From a virus: 31,339 nucleotides of DNA. Every line of letters starts with the position of its first letter. The first letter of the stretch is position 1. The stretch spans positions 1-31,339 of IMG/VR virus record IMGVR_UViG_3300033182_000245; one strand, 5' to 3'. The notes below the pieces were generated by a model. That model saw nothing but the letters and a program-made list of their open reading frames with translations, made no database searches and was not told the DNA's origin. Position numbers and translations under genes: made by a program. Below are positions 9,092 to 26,073 of this stretch, in pieces.

Positions 9092-9681
9092 GCGACGCCT
9101 CGATTGCGAATGTATGGCGTGACAAGTTGTGCAACGTCAGGGTCTAGGCCTTTGCTGACTCTCATTGCGCCCATCTCTCCGAAGCCTGCGATGCCGAGTG
9201 GTGAGTCAAGTCGCTTGAAGATTCTGCTCGCTTGAATGACTGCTGCTTGTGTGATGCTCGCTGGCACGGCAGGGAAGCCGAACGTGCCTGTGATCTTGAC
9301 TGTCTTCTCTCCGTATGCGGTTGGGAAGATGTAGTCGTCAACTGCACGGATGCGAGTGTAAGGCCATGACAGTCCATCTGCGACTGCATTCAAAGGTTCG
9401 AGTTGATAGTCCTTCGCAGCCCAGGTTACGTCATAGACTTGATCTGACAGCGTGCTTGTTTGCAGCGTGATCGCTGTGCCTGCGAGATCGTCGATGTTGA
9501 TGACGTAGGAATCATGCGGCGCGAAGTAGCGAGTCGCTGAGACTGTGCCGAATGTGCGTTGACAGTAACCATCGATCAGTTCGCTTGCTGCGCTTCCAGC
9601 CATCTTGATCAGAGAGTTATCAACATCATCCGTGATGCGCAATGCGGTTTTGATCTGATCGGTGCTTGCGTACAGAGTCAT
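9088..9681 (-). CDS. Head-tail connector protein (gp6-like N-terminal domain)
   Basis: 197 aa. TDQIKTALRITDDVDNSLIKMAGSAASELIDGYCQRTFG matches the Phage_connect_1 pattern. Confidence 0.7.
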   Translation of the reverse strand: MTLYASTDQIKTALRITDDVDNSLIKMAGSAASELIDGYCQRTFGTVSATRYFAPHDSYVINIDDLAGTAITLQTSTLSDQVYDVTWAAKDYQLEPLNAVADGLSWPYTRIRAVDDYIFPTAYGEKTVKITGTFGFPAVPASITQAAVIQASRIFKRLDSPLGIAGFGEMGAMRVSKGLDPDVAQLVTPYIRNRGVA

Positions 9682-10217
9682 CTGTTCTCCTTGACGATGC
9701 CTACGAAGTAGAGATCATGTGATTGATTGTTGATCTCGAACTCGTATGCATCGAACAGTTCATCGAGATCGAATGCTTGTGTGAAGTCATCAACTGTCAG
9801 GTTCTTGTAGTAATCCCAGCCAACAGTATGTGGTGATGCGCCTGGTGTTGATCGTGACGTTCCGTGTTCTGCTCTGCCTGTTGTCGCGCATGTCATGATC
9901 ACGACTGCGTTGCTCATGCGAATCATGTTCGCGAATGTTTCACGCCAGAACGGATTATGTTCGAAGCATTCTGCGCTCAGTACGACATCGAAACTGTTGT
10001 CATCGAGATCCAGTTCTTGCGCTGCACAGACAAGATCAACGCCAGGTCCTTCTCCGACATCGACGCCGACATATTCGCAATCAACGAAGAAATCACGCGC
10101 TGACCCGTTGATATTGAGCGAGCCGATGTCGAGCACACGCTTCGCGTTGAACATGTCAGGCATTCTGTCGCGTACTTGTTCGAAGAACACGCGCTGCTCA
10201 ACGTGCGCCATGATCAT
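9678..10217 (-). CDS. Class I SAM-dependent methyltransferase (glycosylation cassette)
   Basis: Motif I is KRVLDIGSLNINGS, with a later VLSAECFEH. The start is uncertain (ATG at 10217 or 10211; the track start at 10256 is less likely). Overlaps the GT2 stop. Confidence 0.75.
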   Translation of the reverse strand: MIMAHVEQRVFFEQVRDRMPDMFNAKRVLDIGSLNINGSARDFFVDCEYVGVDVGEGPGVDLVCAAQELDLDDNSFDVVLSAECFEHNPFWRETFANMIRMSNAVVIMTCATTGRAEHGTSRSTPGASPHTVGWDYYKNLTVDDFTQAFDLDELFDAYEFEINNQSHDLYFVGIVKENR

Positions 10218-10863
10218 CCCATGACAGATCGCGACGACGACGCAGCATGAACTCACCTGCAGTCAGATCGTTACGAAACACTTTGCGTTCGTAGTAGTCA
10301 CGATTTGCTGAGAACGTGACTTCATTGATCGATCGATAGCCAGCGTCGAGTGTGCTGCTGTTGTCATGATGAACAGCGATGTTACTGTGCAATGTTGTGA
10401 ACTGCATCGCTCGCGTGCGCCGCTCGTAATCGTTGTCCTCAAAGTACGCCGGATGCAATGCTTCATCGAACAGGCCTACTGTTGACACGACTTCATCGCC
10501 GAGCATGAAAGCACACCATGGAGGCGAGCCGCCTGACAGAAGAAGCATGTCGCGTTCTTGCAGACCATCGAACAGCGACAATGACCCTGCTGGCCATGTG
10601 ATGTCGAAGTTGCAGATCAGCCATGATCGAGCGAACGGCGTTACTTTGATGCCAAGATTCCATGAACCTGCGACACCTAGATTCGCTGGCATGGGTAGCA
10701 GCGAGAAACGTTTGATGTGTTTCTTCCAGCGCACTTGCTTCGGATCAACGCATCGTCCGTTGTCGATGACGACAAAGTGTTCGATGTCATGATCGATGCT
10801 GTCGATCATGCGATACAGCAGATCGTCACGCGTCAAGATCGGAACGATCATCGCGTCAATCAT
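10198..10863 (-). CDS. Family 2 (GT-A) glycosyltransferase
   Basis: 221 aa. IVPILTRDDLLYRMIDSI, NLGVAGSWNLGIK and the acidic FEDNDYERR motif. Confidence 0.8.
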   Translation of the reverse strand: MIDAMIVPILTRDDLLYRMIDSIDHDIEHFVVIDNGRCVDPKQVRWKKHIKRFSLLPMPANLGVAGSWNLGIKVTPFARSWLICNFDITWPAGSLSLFDGLQERDMLLLSGGSPPWCAFMLGDEVVSTVGLFDEALHPAYFEDNDYERRTRAMQFTTLHSNIAVHHDNSSTLDAGYRSINEVTFSANRDYYERKVFRNDLTAGEFMLRRRRDLSWDDHGAR

Positions 10864-12101
10864 GACAGCGCCTTGATTGATGGTCGCCAGAAGTGATCGA
10901 AGATGAAGTCTGCGTCGTACTGCGAAGCAAACTCAATCGCTTTGTCGCTGCGTACTCGACCACGCTCATACGCTTGCTGCAATGCGTCAACGATGCTCGC
11001 TACTCGAGGCGTGACAAGCCATGACTTCTGCATCGCATCCCACCATGGCTGTCCATCAACTAGCCAGCCGTCGCCGCACAGTTCTGTTTGCGCTGTCGCA
11101 TCAGTCATGATCACAGGCGTTCCACATGCCTGCGCTTCGATCGCGGGAATGCCGAAGCCTTCTCCCATCGACGGTTGCAAGAACACATCCATCGCTGTGT
11201 AGATCGATGCGAGAACTTCTTGTGTCATGCCTGAGCGATACGCGTACTGATCGACGAATACGATCTGCTCATCTTTGATGCCGCACGCTTGCGCGAGTTC
11301 ACGCAGATTGATTCCACCCATCGCGCCGCGATCTTCTGTGTGCAGATACAGCACAGCGTCATCGTGTTTCTGCGCGAACATCGCGAACGCGAGAAACGCT
11401 TCAGGGAACGCTTTGCGATTAGGCACGACGCCTTTGTTCGCTGAGTTCATTCCGACAACGAACTTGTCATCAGCGATCTCGATGATGTCGCGCCCAGTCA
11501 TCGAGCCGTTCGATGTCTTGATGTTCTCTGTCGGCTTGAAGACTTGCTCGATCGCGTGAGGAATGTAGAAGCATTTGATGTCAGCGTTGTGCAGCATTGA
11601 TTCGCCGAAGCGACTCATCGCGATTGGTGTCACGTTGTCGCGCTTGCACCATGCGAGAACGTCAGGCGGCGCGGGCATGTGATCGATTGGTACCCATGAT
11701 GCGATCTGATCGATCAAGTCCCATTGCTTGCCTTTGTAGACCCATACGTCATAGAGCGTGATTAGCAACGGGTTCTCGCTGTTGTTCTCATGCGCCCATG
11801 CGTACAAGTGCGCAGGAATGACATCGTTGCTGTGAAGATCGTAGCCGCGTGGAAAGACTTTGATGCCTTCCCAGATTGTTGCTGCGCCTTCTAGTCCGTA
11901 GTTCGACGCGATCGCGATCGCGTGCTTGTCTTCTTTGAGGCGTTGCGTGACTTGCGCTGTTTGTTGCCCGTAGCCTGTCGTGGCGTGTGGGGAGTTGCTT
12001 GCCCAGAGTATGGTGCGGCGAAGTTCGCTCGAATCAACAGTTGCCCTATGTGCGGCGGCACGCTTAGCAGGGTTCCCAGAACGTTGATCTGCATTGGACA
12101 T
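10860..12101 (-). CDS. GT-B fold glycosyltransferase (GT4/GT1-like)
   Basis: 413 aa. PSMGEGFGIPAIEAQACGTPVIMTD is the canonical E-x7-E/GT4 C-terminal signature. Confidence 0.8.
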   Translation of the reverse strand: MSNADQRSGNPAKRAAAHRATVDSSELRRTILWASNSPHATTGYGQQTAQVTQRLKEDKHAIAIASNYGLEGAATIWEGIKVFPRGYDLHSNDVIPAHLYAWAHENNSENPLLITLYDVWVYKGKQWDLIDQIASWVPIDHMPAPPDVLAWCKRDNVTPIAMSRFGESMLHNADIKCFYIPHAIEQVFKPTENIKTSNGSMTGRDIIEIADDKFVVGMNSANKGVVPNRKAFPEAFLAFAMFAQKHDDAVLYLHTEDRGAMGGINLRELAQACGIKDEQIVFVDQYAYRSGMTQEVLASIYTAMDVFLQPSMGEGFGIPAIEAQACGTPVIMTDATAQTELCGDGWLVDGQPWWDAMQKSWLVTPRVASIVDALQQAYERGRVRSDKAIEFASQYDADFIFDHFWRPSIKALS

Positions 12102-22313: not shown

Positions 22314-22737
22314 TAGGATCATCAGACACTCGAGGCGCAGATGTCGCCCACGGATCGTTCTCAACTTGTGCTGCTGTTTGACGCTTCACGCGAGACACCT
22401 TCGCTGTCTGACGACGATCAACGATCGCAGCGACAGTTCGAGCACGCACTTCGACGCGTGAACGCTTCTCACCATTCGGGTCTTCCCATTGACGCGCATA
22501 CGCGTCACCCATGACGATGACTTGATCACCTTTCGACAGCGACTCTGCTGCTGCTTCTGCGTCTGCTTCCCAGATCGTGCAGTCCCAGAACGTCGTGTCT
22601 TCTTCTTTCCAGCCTTCGTCTGTCTTGCGCTTGCGTGAAGTGACAACATTCAAACGCACAAGTGCTTTGCCTGATGCTGTGAACTTCAACTCTGGATCGC
22701 TCGACAAGCGACCCTTCAACGTGACTGCTGTGCTCAT
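22297..22737 (-). CDS. ssb: Single-stranded DNA-binding protein
   Basis: Start ATG 22737 (MSTAVTLKGRLSSDPELKF), preceded by AAGGAG, with an ATGA overlap onto the WhiB stop. OB-fold pattern (TFWDCTIWEADAEAAAESLSKGDQVIVMG) and an acidic tip DDPNDMPF. Confidence 0.88.
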   Translation of the reverse strand: MSTAVTLKGRLSSDPELKFTASGKALVRLNVVTSRKRKTDEGWKEEDTTFWDCTIWEADAEAAAESLSKGDQVIVMGDAYARQWEDPNGEKRSRVEVRARTVAAIVDRRQTAKVSRVKRQTAAQVENDPWATSAPRVSDDPNDMPF

Positions 22738-23234
22738 GCGATCTCCTTGAATAGATTGACAGCACCAGCGTCTAGTGCTGTGTGATAGCGATGAGCCGCA
22801 CTTGTGCCATTCATGCGCAGGTGACGGCCGATCATTGTTTGAGTCCATCCATACTGGTGAACGAGAATGCGATGCACAAGCGACTTCTCAACGTTGTTGA
22901 GTCGCTGATACAACGCAAAGCCTTCTTGATTGTCGAACAGCAACGTCTCGACTGTGCGTTCAATCTGCACGCGATCAATCGATGTGCTGTTGCTTTCTTG
23001 ACGATGCAATCGTTGGCGTTCTGTCGCTGTCATGCCTCCCCAGATGCCGAAGCGTTCTTTGTGTTGTAGCGCGTAACTCAAACACTCGACACGCACAGGA
23101 CACGACGCGCATACGCGTTTCGCTGCGAGAGCGATGGAACTTTCATCATTCGTATCGAGATAGAACATGTCGCCGATGTCATGACAGGCTGCACGCTCCA
23201 TCCATTCAGGATGATCGACTGTGAAGTGCATCAT
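22734..23234 (-). CDS. whiB: WhiB-family Fe-S transcription factor fused to a C-terminal HTH domain
   Basis: C-x24-C-x2-C-x5-C (AACHD...RVCASCPVRVEC) followed by GIWGG. The C-terminal 80 aa contain LVHRILVHQYGWTQTMIGRHLRMNGTSAAHRY, which is sigma-region-4/LuxR-like. Confidence 0.8.
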   Translation of the reverse strand: MMHFTVDHPEWMERAACHDIGDMFYLDTNDESSIALAAKRVCASCPVRVECLSYALQHKERFGIWGGMTATERQRLHRQESNSTSIDRVQIERTVETLLFDNQEGFALYQRLNNVEKSLVHRILVHQYGWTQTMIGRHLRMNGTSAAHRYHTALDAGAVNLFKEIA

Positions 23235-23536
23235 CGCATGGCCTCAACGAGATCGCGGCGACGCTTCGCTGTGATCGTTCGATCTTCGACTGGCATCTCT
23301 TCGAGCAGTTCACGCGCTTCGATCATCTCAACGCTCACATGCAGGCCTGACTTCAACGTTTCGACTTGCGCGAGTTCGCGTCGCTTCTGAATCGCAGCCT
23401 TCACAGCAATGTCGATCGCGAGACGACTCGCTCCAAGATCGACGAGCGCAGTCATCAATCGCTGCTGCAAACGCTGTCGCTGCTGCTTGCTGAGATGCTG
23501 CATCTCTTCTGTGCTAGGTACAACAAAGCGATTCAT
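23231..23536 (-). CDS. Hypothetical protein (101 aa)
   Basis: ATGA-type overlaps at both ends. Helical, charged composition. Confidence 0.6.
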   Translation of the reverse strand: MNRFVVPSTEEMQHLSKQQRQRLQQRLMTALVDLGASRLAIDIAVKAAIQKRRELAQVETLKSGLHVSVEMIEARELLEEMPVEDRTITAKRRRDLVEAMR

Positions 23537-23898
23537 TTCGCGTCTCTCTCTCGCTTCTTAGACCAACGCGCTGCTGCTGCTGATCGAGCGCGCGCTGATC
23601 GTCTCTTCATCTCTTCTGTGCTTGGCTGATACTCATCCCAATCGTTGACTCGCCAACCCCCTTCTTCTTCCCACCAGAGATTCACTTCACACAAACGATT
23701 CGCGTCTGCTTTGCGAGCGTGCAACAAGGGCAACGCCTCGCGTGGAATGAATCCGTCTGTGCCTTGCTCGCCGACGTACGCGAGTGAGCACACATACACG
23801 AACGCAGTTCGATAGCCGTCGCGTGCTGCGAGCAGCGACAGAATCTTGCTGTTGCGTGGCAGACTCGTATCGAGTCGCACCCATCTGAGTGTGCTCAT
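23533..23898 (-). CDS. Hypothetical DNA-binding-like protein (121 aa)
   Basis: WVRLDTSLPRNSKILSLL...GFIPREAL resembles the N-termini of phage replisome-organizer/winged-helix proteins. Basic tail. The function call is weak. Confidence 0.55.
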   Translation of the reverse strand: MSTLRWVRLDTSLPRNSKILSLLAARDGYRTAFVYVCSLAYVGEQGTDGFIPREALPLLHARKADANRLCEVNLWWEEEGGWRVNDWDEYQPSTEEMKRRSARARSAAAARWSKKRERDAK

Positions 23899-24551
23899 CG
23901 ATCACGCTCAATGATGTAGCCAGCGAAGTCACCGAAGCGAAAGAACTCGACACCACCGAACGCTTCGATCATGTAGTGATCGAGAGGTCTTTGCGCGCCA
24001 GCGAGTGACAGTTCTTTCTCGATGATCTCTAACGGATCAACACCTGCGTTCAGTTTCTCAGTCAACGTCAATCGAGAGTTGACGATCGACAAGTAGCCCG
24101 CCGGCGGCAAGAAGCGTTCGACGATGATCAATGCGCCGCCAGGTTTGATCGCCTGTGTCCAAACTTGAAGTGTCGGTTGAACTTTGTCCGGCGCGACAAA
24201 CATGAACACAAGAAACGCAACAGCAAGATCGAACTGTTCAGGCTCAACATCAATGATGCTGCGATTGATCATCTTGCCAGGTCCGTTGTATTGCTTGGCC
24301 ATTTCTCGACTGACTTCGATCGCTTCAAAGTGTGCATCTCGATCACGCAGCACATCAGACAATGCTCGACCAATGTTGCCCGTCGATGCGCCAAGATCAT
24401 AGACACGCGCCTTGTCGTGAATGTAATGTCGAGCGATCGTCACCACAGCACGCGTCGCCAAGTCATACCATGGCAACTGTTCACGCACATGCTCATCGAA
24501 GTGTGTTGCGATCTCGTCGCTCTTGAACGTCCAGTTCGATGGAACTTTCAC
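23895..24551 (-). CDS. CmoA-like class I SAM-dependent enzyme (carboxy-SAM synthase-like methyltransferase fold)
   Basis: 218 aa, GTG start in a GTGA overlap with the C5-MTase stop. NWTFKSDEIATHFDEHVREQLPWY...RVYDLGASTGNIG...IKPGGALIIVERF aligns by eye with E. coli CmoA ([23 protein letters not shown]...QVYDLGCSLG...LNPGGALVLSEKF). Confidence 0.6.
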   Translation of the reverse strand: MKVPSNWTFKSDEIATHFDEHVREQLPWYDLATRAVVTIARHYIHDKARVYDLGASTGNIGRALSDVLRDRDAHFEAIEVSREMAKQYNGPGKMINRSIIDVEPEQFDLAVAFLVFMFVAPDKVQPTLQVWTQAIKPGGALIIVERFLPPAGYLSIVNSRLTLTEKLNAGVDPLEIIEKELSLAGAQRPLDHYMIEAFGGVEFFRFGDFAGYIIERDR

Positions 24552-25630
24552 AATGTCCTCTCTAATAGTTGCGCCATGTGCGAGGCGTGCGCGTAATACA
24601 ACGGTGGTGGCACAGCGCGAGCGATGCGTTCATACCGCTGCGCTGGCGTGCCAGTCAGTATGAAGTCAGACGGAAAGCCAGTGATCCATTTGACTTCTGT
24701 CGCTGTGAACTTGCGTGGCTCATCAGGATGCAGCGGGTCTGCTGCTGACTTCGACCCGCCGACTGTGATCGTCGGCAATGGCTGATCGTAGTGTGCTCGC
24801 GTGATCTGAAAGATCACATCGCTGCCTTCGCCTGGGTTCAACAGTTCCCATTCGCGTAGATACGAAGGCGCGAGATTGCGTGCGTGCTTCATCTCATCGT
24901 CTGGTATCTGAACTTCGAGCGCATCGATCGCGTCGCGTAGCGTGTAACGATCTGAGACAGTCGCTGGCGGCGTAGGTTTGACGTTCTGATCTCTTCGTAT
25001 GCCCTGAAAGATCAGACGCTTACGCGCTGTCGCTGAGCCGTAGTGACTGACTTTGTAGACATCGACGTTCAGCACATAGCCAAGTTCCTGCAGCGTCGAT
25101 GTCACATGATGCAGAAAGTCGATCGCGTCTTCCTGTAACATGCCAGGCACGTTCTCAGCGAGAACAGCCCTAGGCCTGAGTCCTTCAACGAGACGCAGCC
25201 ATTCATCGAACAGATCATCAGTTGATTGCTCAACGCCGTCGCTGTATGACTTGATCTTGTTACTGCCGAAGCGTGCTTGCTTGCTGACGTTCGCGCTGCT
25301 GAAACTCGAACACGGCGGCGAGCCTTCGAGCATGTCCAGTTCGCCTTGCTTGATCTGCAAGTGATCGAGAATGTCTTGCGCATCGATCTCTCGAATGTCG
25401 CGAGCATCAACGAATGTGTCTGTGAAGTTCGCTTGATACGTCTCGCGTGCGCTGTCGATGAACTCGACTGCATACGGAACTCGCCAGCCCGCTTGCTTCA
25501 TGCCCAGCGATGAACCACCACAGCCTGAGAACGTCGAGACGACAGTCAGGCCGTTGTCTCTGCGCTGATTGCGTTCACGCATCATGTCGGAGTATGGCTT
25601 CTTCGTGATCTCGAAGAGAGTGTCCATCAC
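24548..25630 (-). CDS. DNA (cytosine-5) methyltransferase-family enzyme with an atypical cofactor pocket
   Basis: Motif I VVSTFSGCGGSSLG. Motif IV GSPPCSSFS (Cys107, followed by Ser instead of Gln). Motif VI LAENVPGM. Motif X RIARAVPPPL (Arg338 where GNAVPP normally has Asn). Confidence 0.85.
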   Translation of the reverse strand: MMDTLFEITKKPYSDMMRERNQRRDNGLTVVSTFSGCGGSSLGMKQAGWRVPYAVEFIDSARETYQANFTDTFVDARDIREIDAQDILDHLQIKQGELDMLEGSPPCSSFSSANVSKQARFGSNKIKSYSDGVEQSTDDLFDEWLRLVEGLRPRAVLAENVPGMLQEDAIDFLHHVTSTLQELGYVLNVDVYKVSHYGSATARKRLIFQGIRRDQNVKPTPPATVSDRYTLRDAIDALEVQIPDDEMKHARNLAPSYLREWELLNPGEGSDVIFQITRAHYDQPLPTITVGGSKSAADPLHPDEPRKFTATEVKWITGFPSDFILTGTPAQRYERIARAVPPPLYYAHASHMAQLLERTL

Positions 25631-26073
25631 ATGCTCTCCTCATCGATGCGATAGAACTCGACGAATACACCAGGACGTCGCGTGAACACTTCTGTGTCGT
25701 AGGTGTAGAACTTCTTCGCGTTGATCTCAACGAATCGAGCGTCATCGCTGACAGCGTTTGATTCTGTAATGCCGTCGAGGACAGCGCGAATCAACTTGTC
25801 GAGATCAGGCTTGCGCGATGGGAAGATGCGCTTCACGCTTCTAGGTCGTGGCAGATAGAACTCGAGGTCGATGCGCAGCGCGTCATCGATCTGCTCTTCG
25901 TCTTGAAAGAATGCACGCACTTGATACGCGACAAGCGTTCGCCACTCTTTGAGTTTCTTCGCGTTGCTGTGAATGACAACACCACGACCGACTGTGCGCA
26001 TCGAACCTTGTGGCACAGGTACACCGTCGATGAAGAATCGTTTGATCTGTGTGTATCGAAAGCGATTGTTCAT
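25627..26073 (-). CDS. rusA: RusA-family Holliday junction resolvase
   Basis: 148 aa. PDLDKLIRAVLDGITESNAVSDDARFVE matches the RusA catalytic DLDN...DD region. Confidence 0.8.
   Translation of the reverse strand: MNNRFRYTQIKRFFIDGVPVPQGSMRTVGRGVVIHSNAKKLKEWRTLVAYQVRAFFQDEEQIDDALRIDLEFYLPRPRSVKRIFPSRKPDLDKLIRAVLDGITESNAVSDDARFVEINAKKFYTYDTEVFTRRPGVFVEFYRIDEESM

Follow-up and report, generated by a model that had tools for sequence, protein, structure and literature searches.

A probable minimal CmoX-CmoA module for DNA carboxymethylation in the early operon of a WhiB-carrying phage

The CmoA/CmoX system of Synechococcus phage S-B43 was described by Yang et al. (Nat Commun, December 2025; PMC12783734). 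In this system, the phage CmoA converts S-adenosylmethionine (SAM) and prephenate to carboxy-SAM, and SpCmoX, a homologue of cytosine-C5 methyltransferases, uses carboxy-SAM only and produces 5-carboxymethylcytosine (5cxmC) at GC sites. CmoY, an asparagine-synthetase-like ligase, converts 5cxmC to its glycine amide, and all 5cxmC is converted in S-B43. In the crystal structure of CmoX with carboxy-SAM (8YF3), Arg350, which occupies the place of Asn304 of M.HhaI, holds the carboxymethyl group, and the R350N mutant of SpCmoX is inactive. The signature consisting of SPPC and Arg350 retrieves 5,615 candidate CmoX, whose contigs also carry 4,257 CmoA genes and 2,251 ligases (PMC12783734). An engineered parallel, as cited in that paper, is M.MpeI N374K (Wang and Kohli 2021), in which a basic motif-X residue leads to the use of carboxy-SAM and the formation of 5cxmC. 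In the present report, a pair of overlapping genes in IMG/VR virus record IMGVR_UViG_3300033182_000245 is compared with these systems. The window, which is the whole stretch of 31,339 nucleotides that was analysed, encodes a 360 amino acid (aa) homologue of CmoX and a 218-aa CmoA-like protein as this pair. A first-pass annotation of the sequence had read the pair as a source of carboxy-SAM coupled to a C5 enzyme with a retuned cofactor pocket. This reading is supported by strong evidence from homology and gene context, and corresponds to the system demonstrated experimentally in S-B43; the novelty that it implied is not, because the system had been published, and the annotation represents a correct independent rediscovery. 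The window pair is a new, divergent and minimal example of a known system.

The 360-aa protein is encoded on the minus strand at 24548..25630, and is identified as a homologue of the CmoX-type DNA cytosine-C5 carboxymethyltransferase by its matches to PF00145 and 8YF3 and by a Foldseek comparison of its AlphaFold2 (AF2) model. The 218-aa protein is encoded on the same strand at 23895..24551, and is assigned as a CmoA-like protein of a divergent phage clade, probably a carboxy-SAM synthase, by its matches to TIGR00740, PHROG 4752 and CmoA structures in the PDB. Judged by homology, both open reading frames are genuine genes and not chance ones, because the longer protein matches PF00145 with an E-value of 5e-49 and the shorter one has 2053 homologues at E <= 1e-5. 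In the minus-strand sequence ACATTGTGAAAG, GTGA (24548..24551, minus strand) is common to the TGA that ends the transferase gene and the GTG that begins the CmoA-like gene, as had been noticed at first pass, and a Shine-Dalgarno-like GAGAGGA is located just upstream. This arrangement indicates translational coupling of the two genes.

From this gene structure, and from the homology, conserved residues and gene linkage given below, the pair is most probably a minimal CmoX-CmoA module for DNA carboxymethylation in an early operon, writing 5cxmC. By analogy with S-B43, activities are proposed for both enzymes, together with the product and a protective role. The 218-aa protein would bind SAM and use prephenate as the carboxyl donor to form carboxy-SAM. 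The 360-aa enzyme would flip the target cytosine, and Cys107 would attack C6. The activated C5 would then accept the carboxymethyl group from carboxy-SAM, with its carboxylate held by Arg338, and 5cxmC would be released upon beta-elimination. The 5cxmC mark would shield the phage DNA from host restriction.

The 360-aa protein matches TIGR00675 with 137 bits in addition to PF00145. Its best sequence match in the PDB is 8YF3 (SpCmoX; E 2.5e-51) and the next is an ordinary prophage C5 enzyme (5.8e-21), such that 8YF3 is better than any ordinary C5 enzyme by about 30 orders of magnitude. The AF2 model of the protein has a mean predicted local distance difference test (pLDDT) score of 89.9, and the top Foldseek match of this model is again 8YF3 with an E-value of 1e-27 and a template modelling (TM) score of 0.85, followed by a match at 1e-22.

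All of the C5 motifs listed at first pass are present at the positions that it had given. Motif I, FSGCGG (residues 34-39; 25514..25531, minus strand), is the cofactor-binding motif, and its Phe34 corresponds to Phe25 of SpCmoX and is present in 76/76 neighbouring enzymes. Motif IV, SPPCSSFS (residues 104-111; 25298..25321, minus strand), contains the catalytic Cys107 (25310..25312) and Ser108 in place of the usual Gln, and its SPPC does not vary among the relatives. Motif VI, ENVPGM (residues 159-164; 25139..25156, minus strand), contains Glu159, which corresponds to Glu119 of M.HhaI, and E159, N160 and V161 are unchanged in 121/121 sequences. Motif X reads RIARAVPPPL (residues 335-344; 24599..24628, minus strand) and contains Arg338 (24617..24619). 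Arg338 is aligned to Arg350 of SpCmoX and Asn304 of M.HhaI in the HMMER and MAFFT alignments, where the identity of R350 is fixed by the R350N primer in the supplement of PMC12783734. The published cofactor contacts of SpCmoX are all kept, with F25, E47, F48, D69, S95-C98 and R350 represented by F34, E56, F57, D78, S104-C107 and R338; the first four of these are the adenine and ribose contacts. The cytosine-binding residues E159, R203 and R205 are invariant.

The motif-X Arg is present in 77/77 neighbouring enzymes, in 121/121 sequences and in 28/28 full-length enzymes from bacterial genomes. Position 108 is less uniform: among the window protein and its 120 closest database homologues, it is Ser in 84, Ala in 37 and Gln in none. 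Ser after the catalytic Cys is a trait of the clade (Ser or Ala) and is not diagnostic, because this residue is Lys in the enzyme of PaBG and Ala in many relatives, and Ser is also found in Met-type enzymes that lack the Arg. By its sequence, the 360-aa enzyme falls within the published definition of CmoX, namely SPPC together with Arg at the position of R350. It departs from the signature of ordinary 5-methylcytosine (5mC) enzymes, with PCS and Ala-Arg versus PCQ and GN in M.HhaI and in the enzymes of Aphanizomenon phage CL131 and Escherichia phage Wphi.

The window enzyme thus resembles S-B43 CmoX in its C5 fold, in SPPC followed by Ser, in Arg at the position of Asn304, in all carboxy-SAM contacts and in the CmoA-type gene alongside. 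The two enzymes are about 35% identical. The target-recognition regions, at approximately residues 215-300, are unlike, and therefore the GC specificity of SpCmoX is not transferable to the window enzyme. The gene order differs as well, with the transferase gene followed by the CmoA-like gene with a 4-base overlap in the window versus cmoA-cmoY-cmoX in S-B43. M.MpeI N374K differs in that it is an engineered point mutant of a CpG enzyme and uses the carboxy-SAM of the host, whereas the Arg of the window enzyme is natural and a gene for the cofactor accompanies that of the enzyme.

The linkage of the Arg-type C5 enzyme with the CmoA-like gene was analysed at 160 loci, which consist of 80 loci out of the 546 IMG/VR contigs that encode the CmoA-like clade of the window and 80 loci from bacterial genomes. 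At 75/80 IMG/VR loci, a homologous C5 enzyme is encoded directly upstream on the same strand, usually with an overlap of 4 to 17 bases, and the Arg is found in each of these enzymes; three of the other five loci are interrupted by a contig end. The same arrangement is found at 28/80 bacterial-genome loci. At the 103 related loci where a homologous C5 enzyme is adjacent, every full-length one thus has the Arg. At each of the 80 viral loci, the gene of the window clade is the sole CmoA-type gene. Among cultured phages, 5/5 Arg-type enzymes have a CmoA-type neighbour (those of S-B43, Mcat8, TurkishDelight and PaBG are included), in contrast to 0/4 phage C5 enzymes without the Arg. These four controls are the enzymes of CL131 and Wphi, which have Asn, and those of Cellulophaga phage phi18:3 and Flavobacterium phage FpV9, which have Met. 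The co-occurrence of Ser after Cys and Arg in motif X with a CmoA-like neighbour, proposed as a check at first pass, is therefore seen for the Arg, which tracks the neighbour; Ser is also present in enzymes without the Arg.

These results bear on the possibility that the 360-aa protein is an ordinary 5mC methyltransferase located beside an unrelated methyltransferase, with neutral changes to Arg and Ser. The protein does have the full set of canonical C5 motifs and good matches to PF00145 and TIGR00675, and Ser after Cys also occurs in enzymes without a CmoA neighbour. Nevertheless, this possibility is very remote. The Arg is invariant in the relatives examined and always linked to a CmoA-type gene, whereas the Asn and Met controls have no such neighbour. 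In addition, SpCmoX, which has this Arg, is unable to use SAM (PMC12783734), and the two genes of the window are translationally coupled.

Several proteins at related loci depart from these types. The enzymes of phi18:3 (L087 2980-4059) and FpV9 (L089 2974-4041) combine SPPCS with Met (GMSVPP) at the position of Asn304 of M.HhaI, and represent a third pocket variant. At locus L082 (5411-6004), the CmoA-like gene is preceded by a gene for a 197-aa protein (MRVLVACEYSG...MIAHP) that has no Pfam match and resembles a miniature N-terminal half of a C5 methyltransferase. A 619-aa protein on a 44.8-kb ENA contig (P0171), in which a CmoA-like N-terminal part is fused to an Arg-type C5 C-terminal part, was not counted as linkage, because the CmoA-like end or junction looks frame-shifted and may be an artefact of sequencing or gene calling.

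The 218-aa protein was said at first pass to resemble E. coli CmoA by eye, and this likeness is borne out by profile and sequence comparisons. In the HMMER comparison, its residues 6-148 match E. coli CmoA (PDB 4GEK) with an E-value of 5.8e-8, which is the best PDB sequence match, and the highest-ranking NCBIfam entry is CmoA TIGR00740. The protein matches PHROG 4752 with an E-value of 3e-46. When the family profile is compared with the PDB, CmoA structures 4GEK, 4IWN and 1IM8 are matched with E-values of 4e-22 to 2e-19, and the next family, the CysG/BelI O-methyltransferases, with 1e-11. The clade is compact but large, and its members with E <= 1e-30 fall into 109 clusters when grouped at 50% identity. 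The AF2 model has a pLDDT of 91.9, and 4GEK is the top Foldseek match with a TM score of 0.83. Structure prediction of both proteins, one of the checks suggested at first pass, thus points to a CmoX-like fold for the one, and for the other to a fold nearest to CmoA that does not decide its family by itself.

The SAM contacts of E. coli CmoA (Byrne et al. 2013) are mostly present in the 218-aa protein. The SAM-binding motif VYDLGASTG (residues 50-58; 24378..24404, minus strand) provides Asp52, Gly54 and Ser56, which correspond to Asp62, Gly64 and Ser66 of E. coli CmoA. For the whole set of contacts, Y39, D62, G64, S66, D89, D117, F137 and E164 are represented by Y29, D52, G54, S56, E79, D101, F118 and E145, with Glu for Asp at E79. 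K185 and K198 of E. coli CmoA are kept and are invariant in all CmoA types compared; Asn90 and Asn132 are not preserved. The segment KELSLAGAQRP (residues 179-189; 23985..24017, minus strand) contains Lys179 at Lys198, Glu180 at Arg199 and Arg188 at Leu207 of the E. coli enzyme. Glu at the position of Arg199 is present in 63/63 sequences of the SpCmoA clade, active SpCmoA included. Arg199 therefore does not define activity, because the active CmoA of S-B43 has Glu at this position. Glu at 199 is combined with a basic residue at 207 in both clades, with Lys in 63/63 sequences of the SpCmoA clade and Arg in 62/62 of the window clade. It is hinted by this combination, which the 218-aa protein shares with SpCmoA, that Arg188 may be a relocated carboxylate binder that replaces Arg199; this is a hint only, because Arg188 is kept in just 75/110 wider representatives. 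The 218-aa protein is shorter than E. coli CmoA by about 30 residues, and shares with E. coli CmoA (4GEK/4IWN) and SpCmoA the fold, the SAM contacts and the genomic role beside CmoX.

An asparagine-synthetase-type amide ligase is encoded at 24/80 viral loci; 11 of these ligases are CmoY-like and 13 are glutamine-dependent asparagine-synthetase-like (Pfam Asn_synthase and GATase). The two CmoA clades appear to be interchangeable, because one locus, L066, combines CmoY (5e-84 to SpCmoY) with a CmoA-like gene of the window clade. In the window, no CmoY-like, AsnB-like or ParB-like gene is detected in any of the six frames (phmmer with SpCmoY and an AsnB-like ligase was used for the ligases), and none of the 48 window proteins scanned has an asparagine-synthetase-type Pfam match. 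The end product is therefore probably plain 5cxmC.

Several observations weigh against the assignment of the pair as a CmoX-CmoA module, and most of them concern the 218-aa protein. Its TIGR00740 score is 43.1 bits and is below the cutoff of 193.3. Its identity to validated CmoAs is only 21-25%. By fold, the CysG/BelI O-methyltransferases are nearly level with CmoA, with TM scores of 0.78-0.80 versus 0.83. Arg199, which forms a salt bridge to the product carboxylate in the E. coli enzyme, is replaced by Glu180. At 44/80 bacterial-genome loci, the CmoA clade of the window occurs without an adjacent C5 enzyme and has a different partner instead. Finally, the window is possibly not the whole genome, so that a further modifying enzyme could be encoded elsewhere. 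The cutoff of TIGR00740 is too strict for phage enzymes, because validated SpCmoA also falls below it with 115.6 bits. Likewise, the Glu at Arg199, on which the first-pass annotation had based a caveat, is confirmed as a residue, and it loses its force as an argument against a carboxy-SAM synthase, since active S-B43 CmoA has Glu as well.

Some of these observations would be accounted for if the 218-aa protein were a SAM-dependent methyltransferase of an ordinary kind, such as the carboxyl O-methyltransferases CysG/BelI or CmoM. The 218-aa protein would then act on 5cxmC to form a methyl ester, on a small molecule or on RNA, with carboxy-SAM supplied by the CmoA of the host. E. coli's own CmoA is indeed sufficient to supply SpCmoX in vivo (PMC12783734), the Pfam matches of the 218-aa protein are to generic class-I methyltransferase domains only, and the near-equal Foldseek scores, the loss of Arg199 and the low TIGR00740 score agree with this possibility. 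Because the fold search separates CmoA from CysG/BelI poorly, the assignment relies on the profile scores, on residues of the active site and on the genomic context, and these render an ordinary methyltransferase unlikely. The family profile favours CmoA over CysG by 11 orders of magnitude (4e-22 versus 1e-11). The His121/His122 metal pair of CysG, whose role is read from the names of mutants in the PDB, is absent and is represented by Met117/Phe118 in the 218-aa protein and by Gln-Phe in CmoA. An amide ligase requires a free carboxylate on DNA, so that the cassettes with ligases fit transfer of a carboxymethyl group and speak against esterification by the 218-aa protein. Its relative is the only CmoA-type gene in 80/80 viral cassettes, where it takes the place of SpCmoA, and SpCmoA itself is validated despite the lack of Arg199 and a score under the TIGR00740 cutoff. 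Grouping of the 218-aa protein with ordinary methyltransferases and loss of the CmoA residues had been named by the first-pass annotation as evidence against its proposal; the profile and most SAM contacts are of CmoA type, CysG/BelI is close by fold and Arg199 is absent.

The divergent clade may alternatively produce a SAM derivative other than carboxy-SAM, or use a donor other than prephenate, in which case the Arg-type enzyme would write a different acidic group and not 5cxmC. The distance of the clade from both validated CmoAs, the Glu that replaces the carboxylate-binding Arg199 and the pairing of the clade with a wholly different transferase-like partner are in line with this alternative. 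It is still regarded as quite improbable, considering that the partner C5 enzyme retains exactly the pocket residues of SpCmoX, that both CmoA clades are accompanied by the same ligase families, and that SpCmoA with the same Glu199 makes carboxy-SAM (PMC12783734). In a milder form of such a departure, plain 5cxmC would be left as the final mark on virion DNA owing to the lack of a ligase, and this phage would be the first example. The 218-aa protein is preferred as a probable carboxy-SAM synthase, and its divergent clade is the main uncertainty in the assignment of the pair.

The different partner of this CmoA clade is a protein of about 505 aa. At the 160 loci, the CmoA-like gene is preceded by an Arg-type C5 enzyme at 103 and by the ~505-aa protein at 45, and never by both. 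The ~505-aa protein consists of a ParB N-terminal domain and a class-I methyltransferase-like domain (VVDFGAG...SSVLNSVPF). It usually occurs with a separate ParB-like gene and often with a HAD-like protein of ~140 aa, and terminase genes follow immediately downstream. Examples are found at L164 2484-4004 (Photobacterium indicum), L140, L153 (Bilophila wadsworthia), L129 and L103, and at the viral locus L023 4011-5534. This ParB-fused protein is a candidate for a non-C5 carboxy-SAM-dependent transferase, a type for which no candidate was reported to have been found in PMC12783734.

Cassettes of the same kind are present in cultured phages, where they are annotated merely as hypothetical proteins or methyltransferases (Mcat8, TurkishDelight and PaBG). 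Moraxella phage Mcat8 is the closest in arrangement, with an Arg-type C5 enzyme and a CmoA-type gene in the two-gene order of the window and without a ligase, and its CmoA-like protein belongs to the window clade (51% identity). Streptomyces phage TurkishDelight and Pseudomonas phage PaBG have CmoAs of clades other than that of the window. In PaBG (L085 2914-6068), a ParB-like gene, an Arg-type C5 enzyme (SPPCK), a CmoA-type gene with Arg199 and an asparagine-synthetase-type ligase are encoded. In TurkishDelight (L084 1284-6312), two ParB-like genes, a C5 enzyme, a ligase and a CmoA-type gene with Ala-Arg in the Arg199 region are encoded. These two phages are ready experimental systems.

The pair is located in an operon with the order exonuclease, single-strand annealing protein, RusA, CmoX, CmoA-like protein, replication-initiator-like protein, WhiB and single-stranded DNA-binding protein. 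The stop codon of the RusA resolvase gene (25627..26073, minus strand) overlaps the start of the transferase gene, and this gene marks the operon as an early recombination and replication operon. An identical operon order is present in a relative on a 38-kb contig, together with an integrase. Downstream of the pair (22734-23898, minus strand), a 121-aa protein and a 101-aa protein of no assigned function are encoded, followed by WhiB; the 121-aa protein matches PHROG replication-initiation families in their N-terminal part only. These genes are joined by 4-base overlaps, so that they form one translationally coupled operon.

The window as a whole is a siphovirus-like segment, which encodes a large terminase, a portal, a prohead protease, a capsid protein, a tape measure protein and an amidase. 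No tRNA is detected within the window, and a megablast search with the locus in 50,697 phage records yields no close cultured relative. An actinobacterial host is probable, because WhiB is present and because related proteins carry the names Actinomycetota and Solirubrobacterales; S-B43, in contrast, is a phage of a cyanobacterium. Between the capsid and head-tail connector genes (9678-12101, minus strand), there is a three-gene cluster, in which a GT4 glycosyltransferase is encoded at 10860-12101, a rhamnosyltransferase-like protein at 10198-10863 and a class-I methyltransferase-like protein at 9678-10256, all on the minus strand. The products of this cluster may add a methylated glycan to the virion. 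The methyltransferase-like gene was considered as a part of the system of the pair and judged to be unrelated, as it has no similarity to CmoA and adjoins the two glycosyltransferase genes in the structural module.

The residue-level reading of this locus, that is, Arg in place of the motif-X Asn combined with a CmoA-like neighbour, recovers a real DNA hypermodification pathway from raw sequence. The window pair extends the range of CmoX/CmoA to a WhiB-carrying, probably actinobacterial phage, and in the smallest form, with two overlapping genes and no ligase. Its large CmoA clade bears on the question of how much sequence drift is tolerated while carboxy-SAM synthesis persists. The compact, presumably self-sufficient pair is also a possible tool for the writing of 5cxmC in hosts that do not have CmoA.

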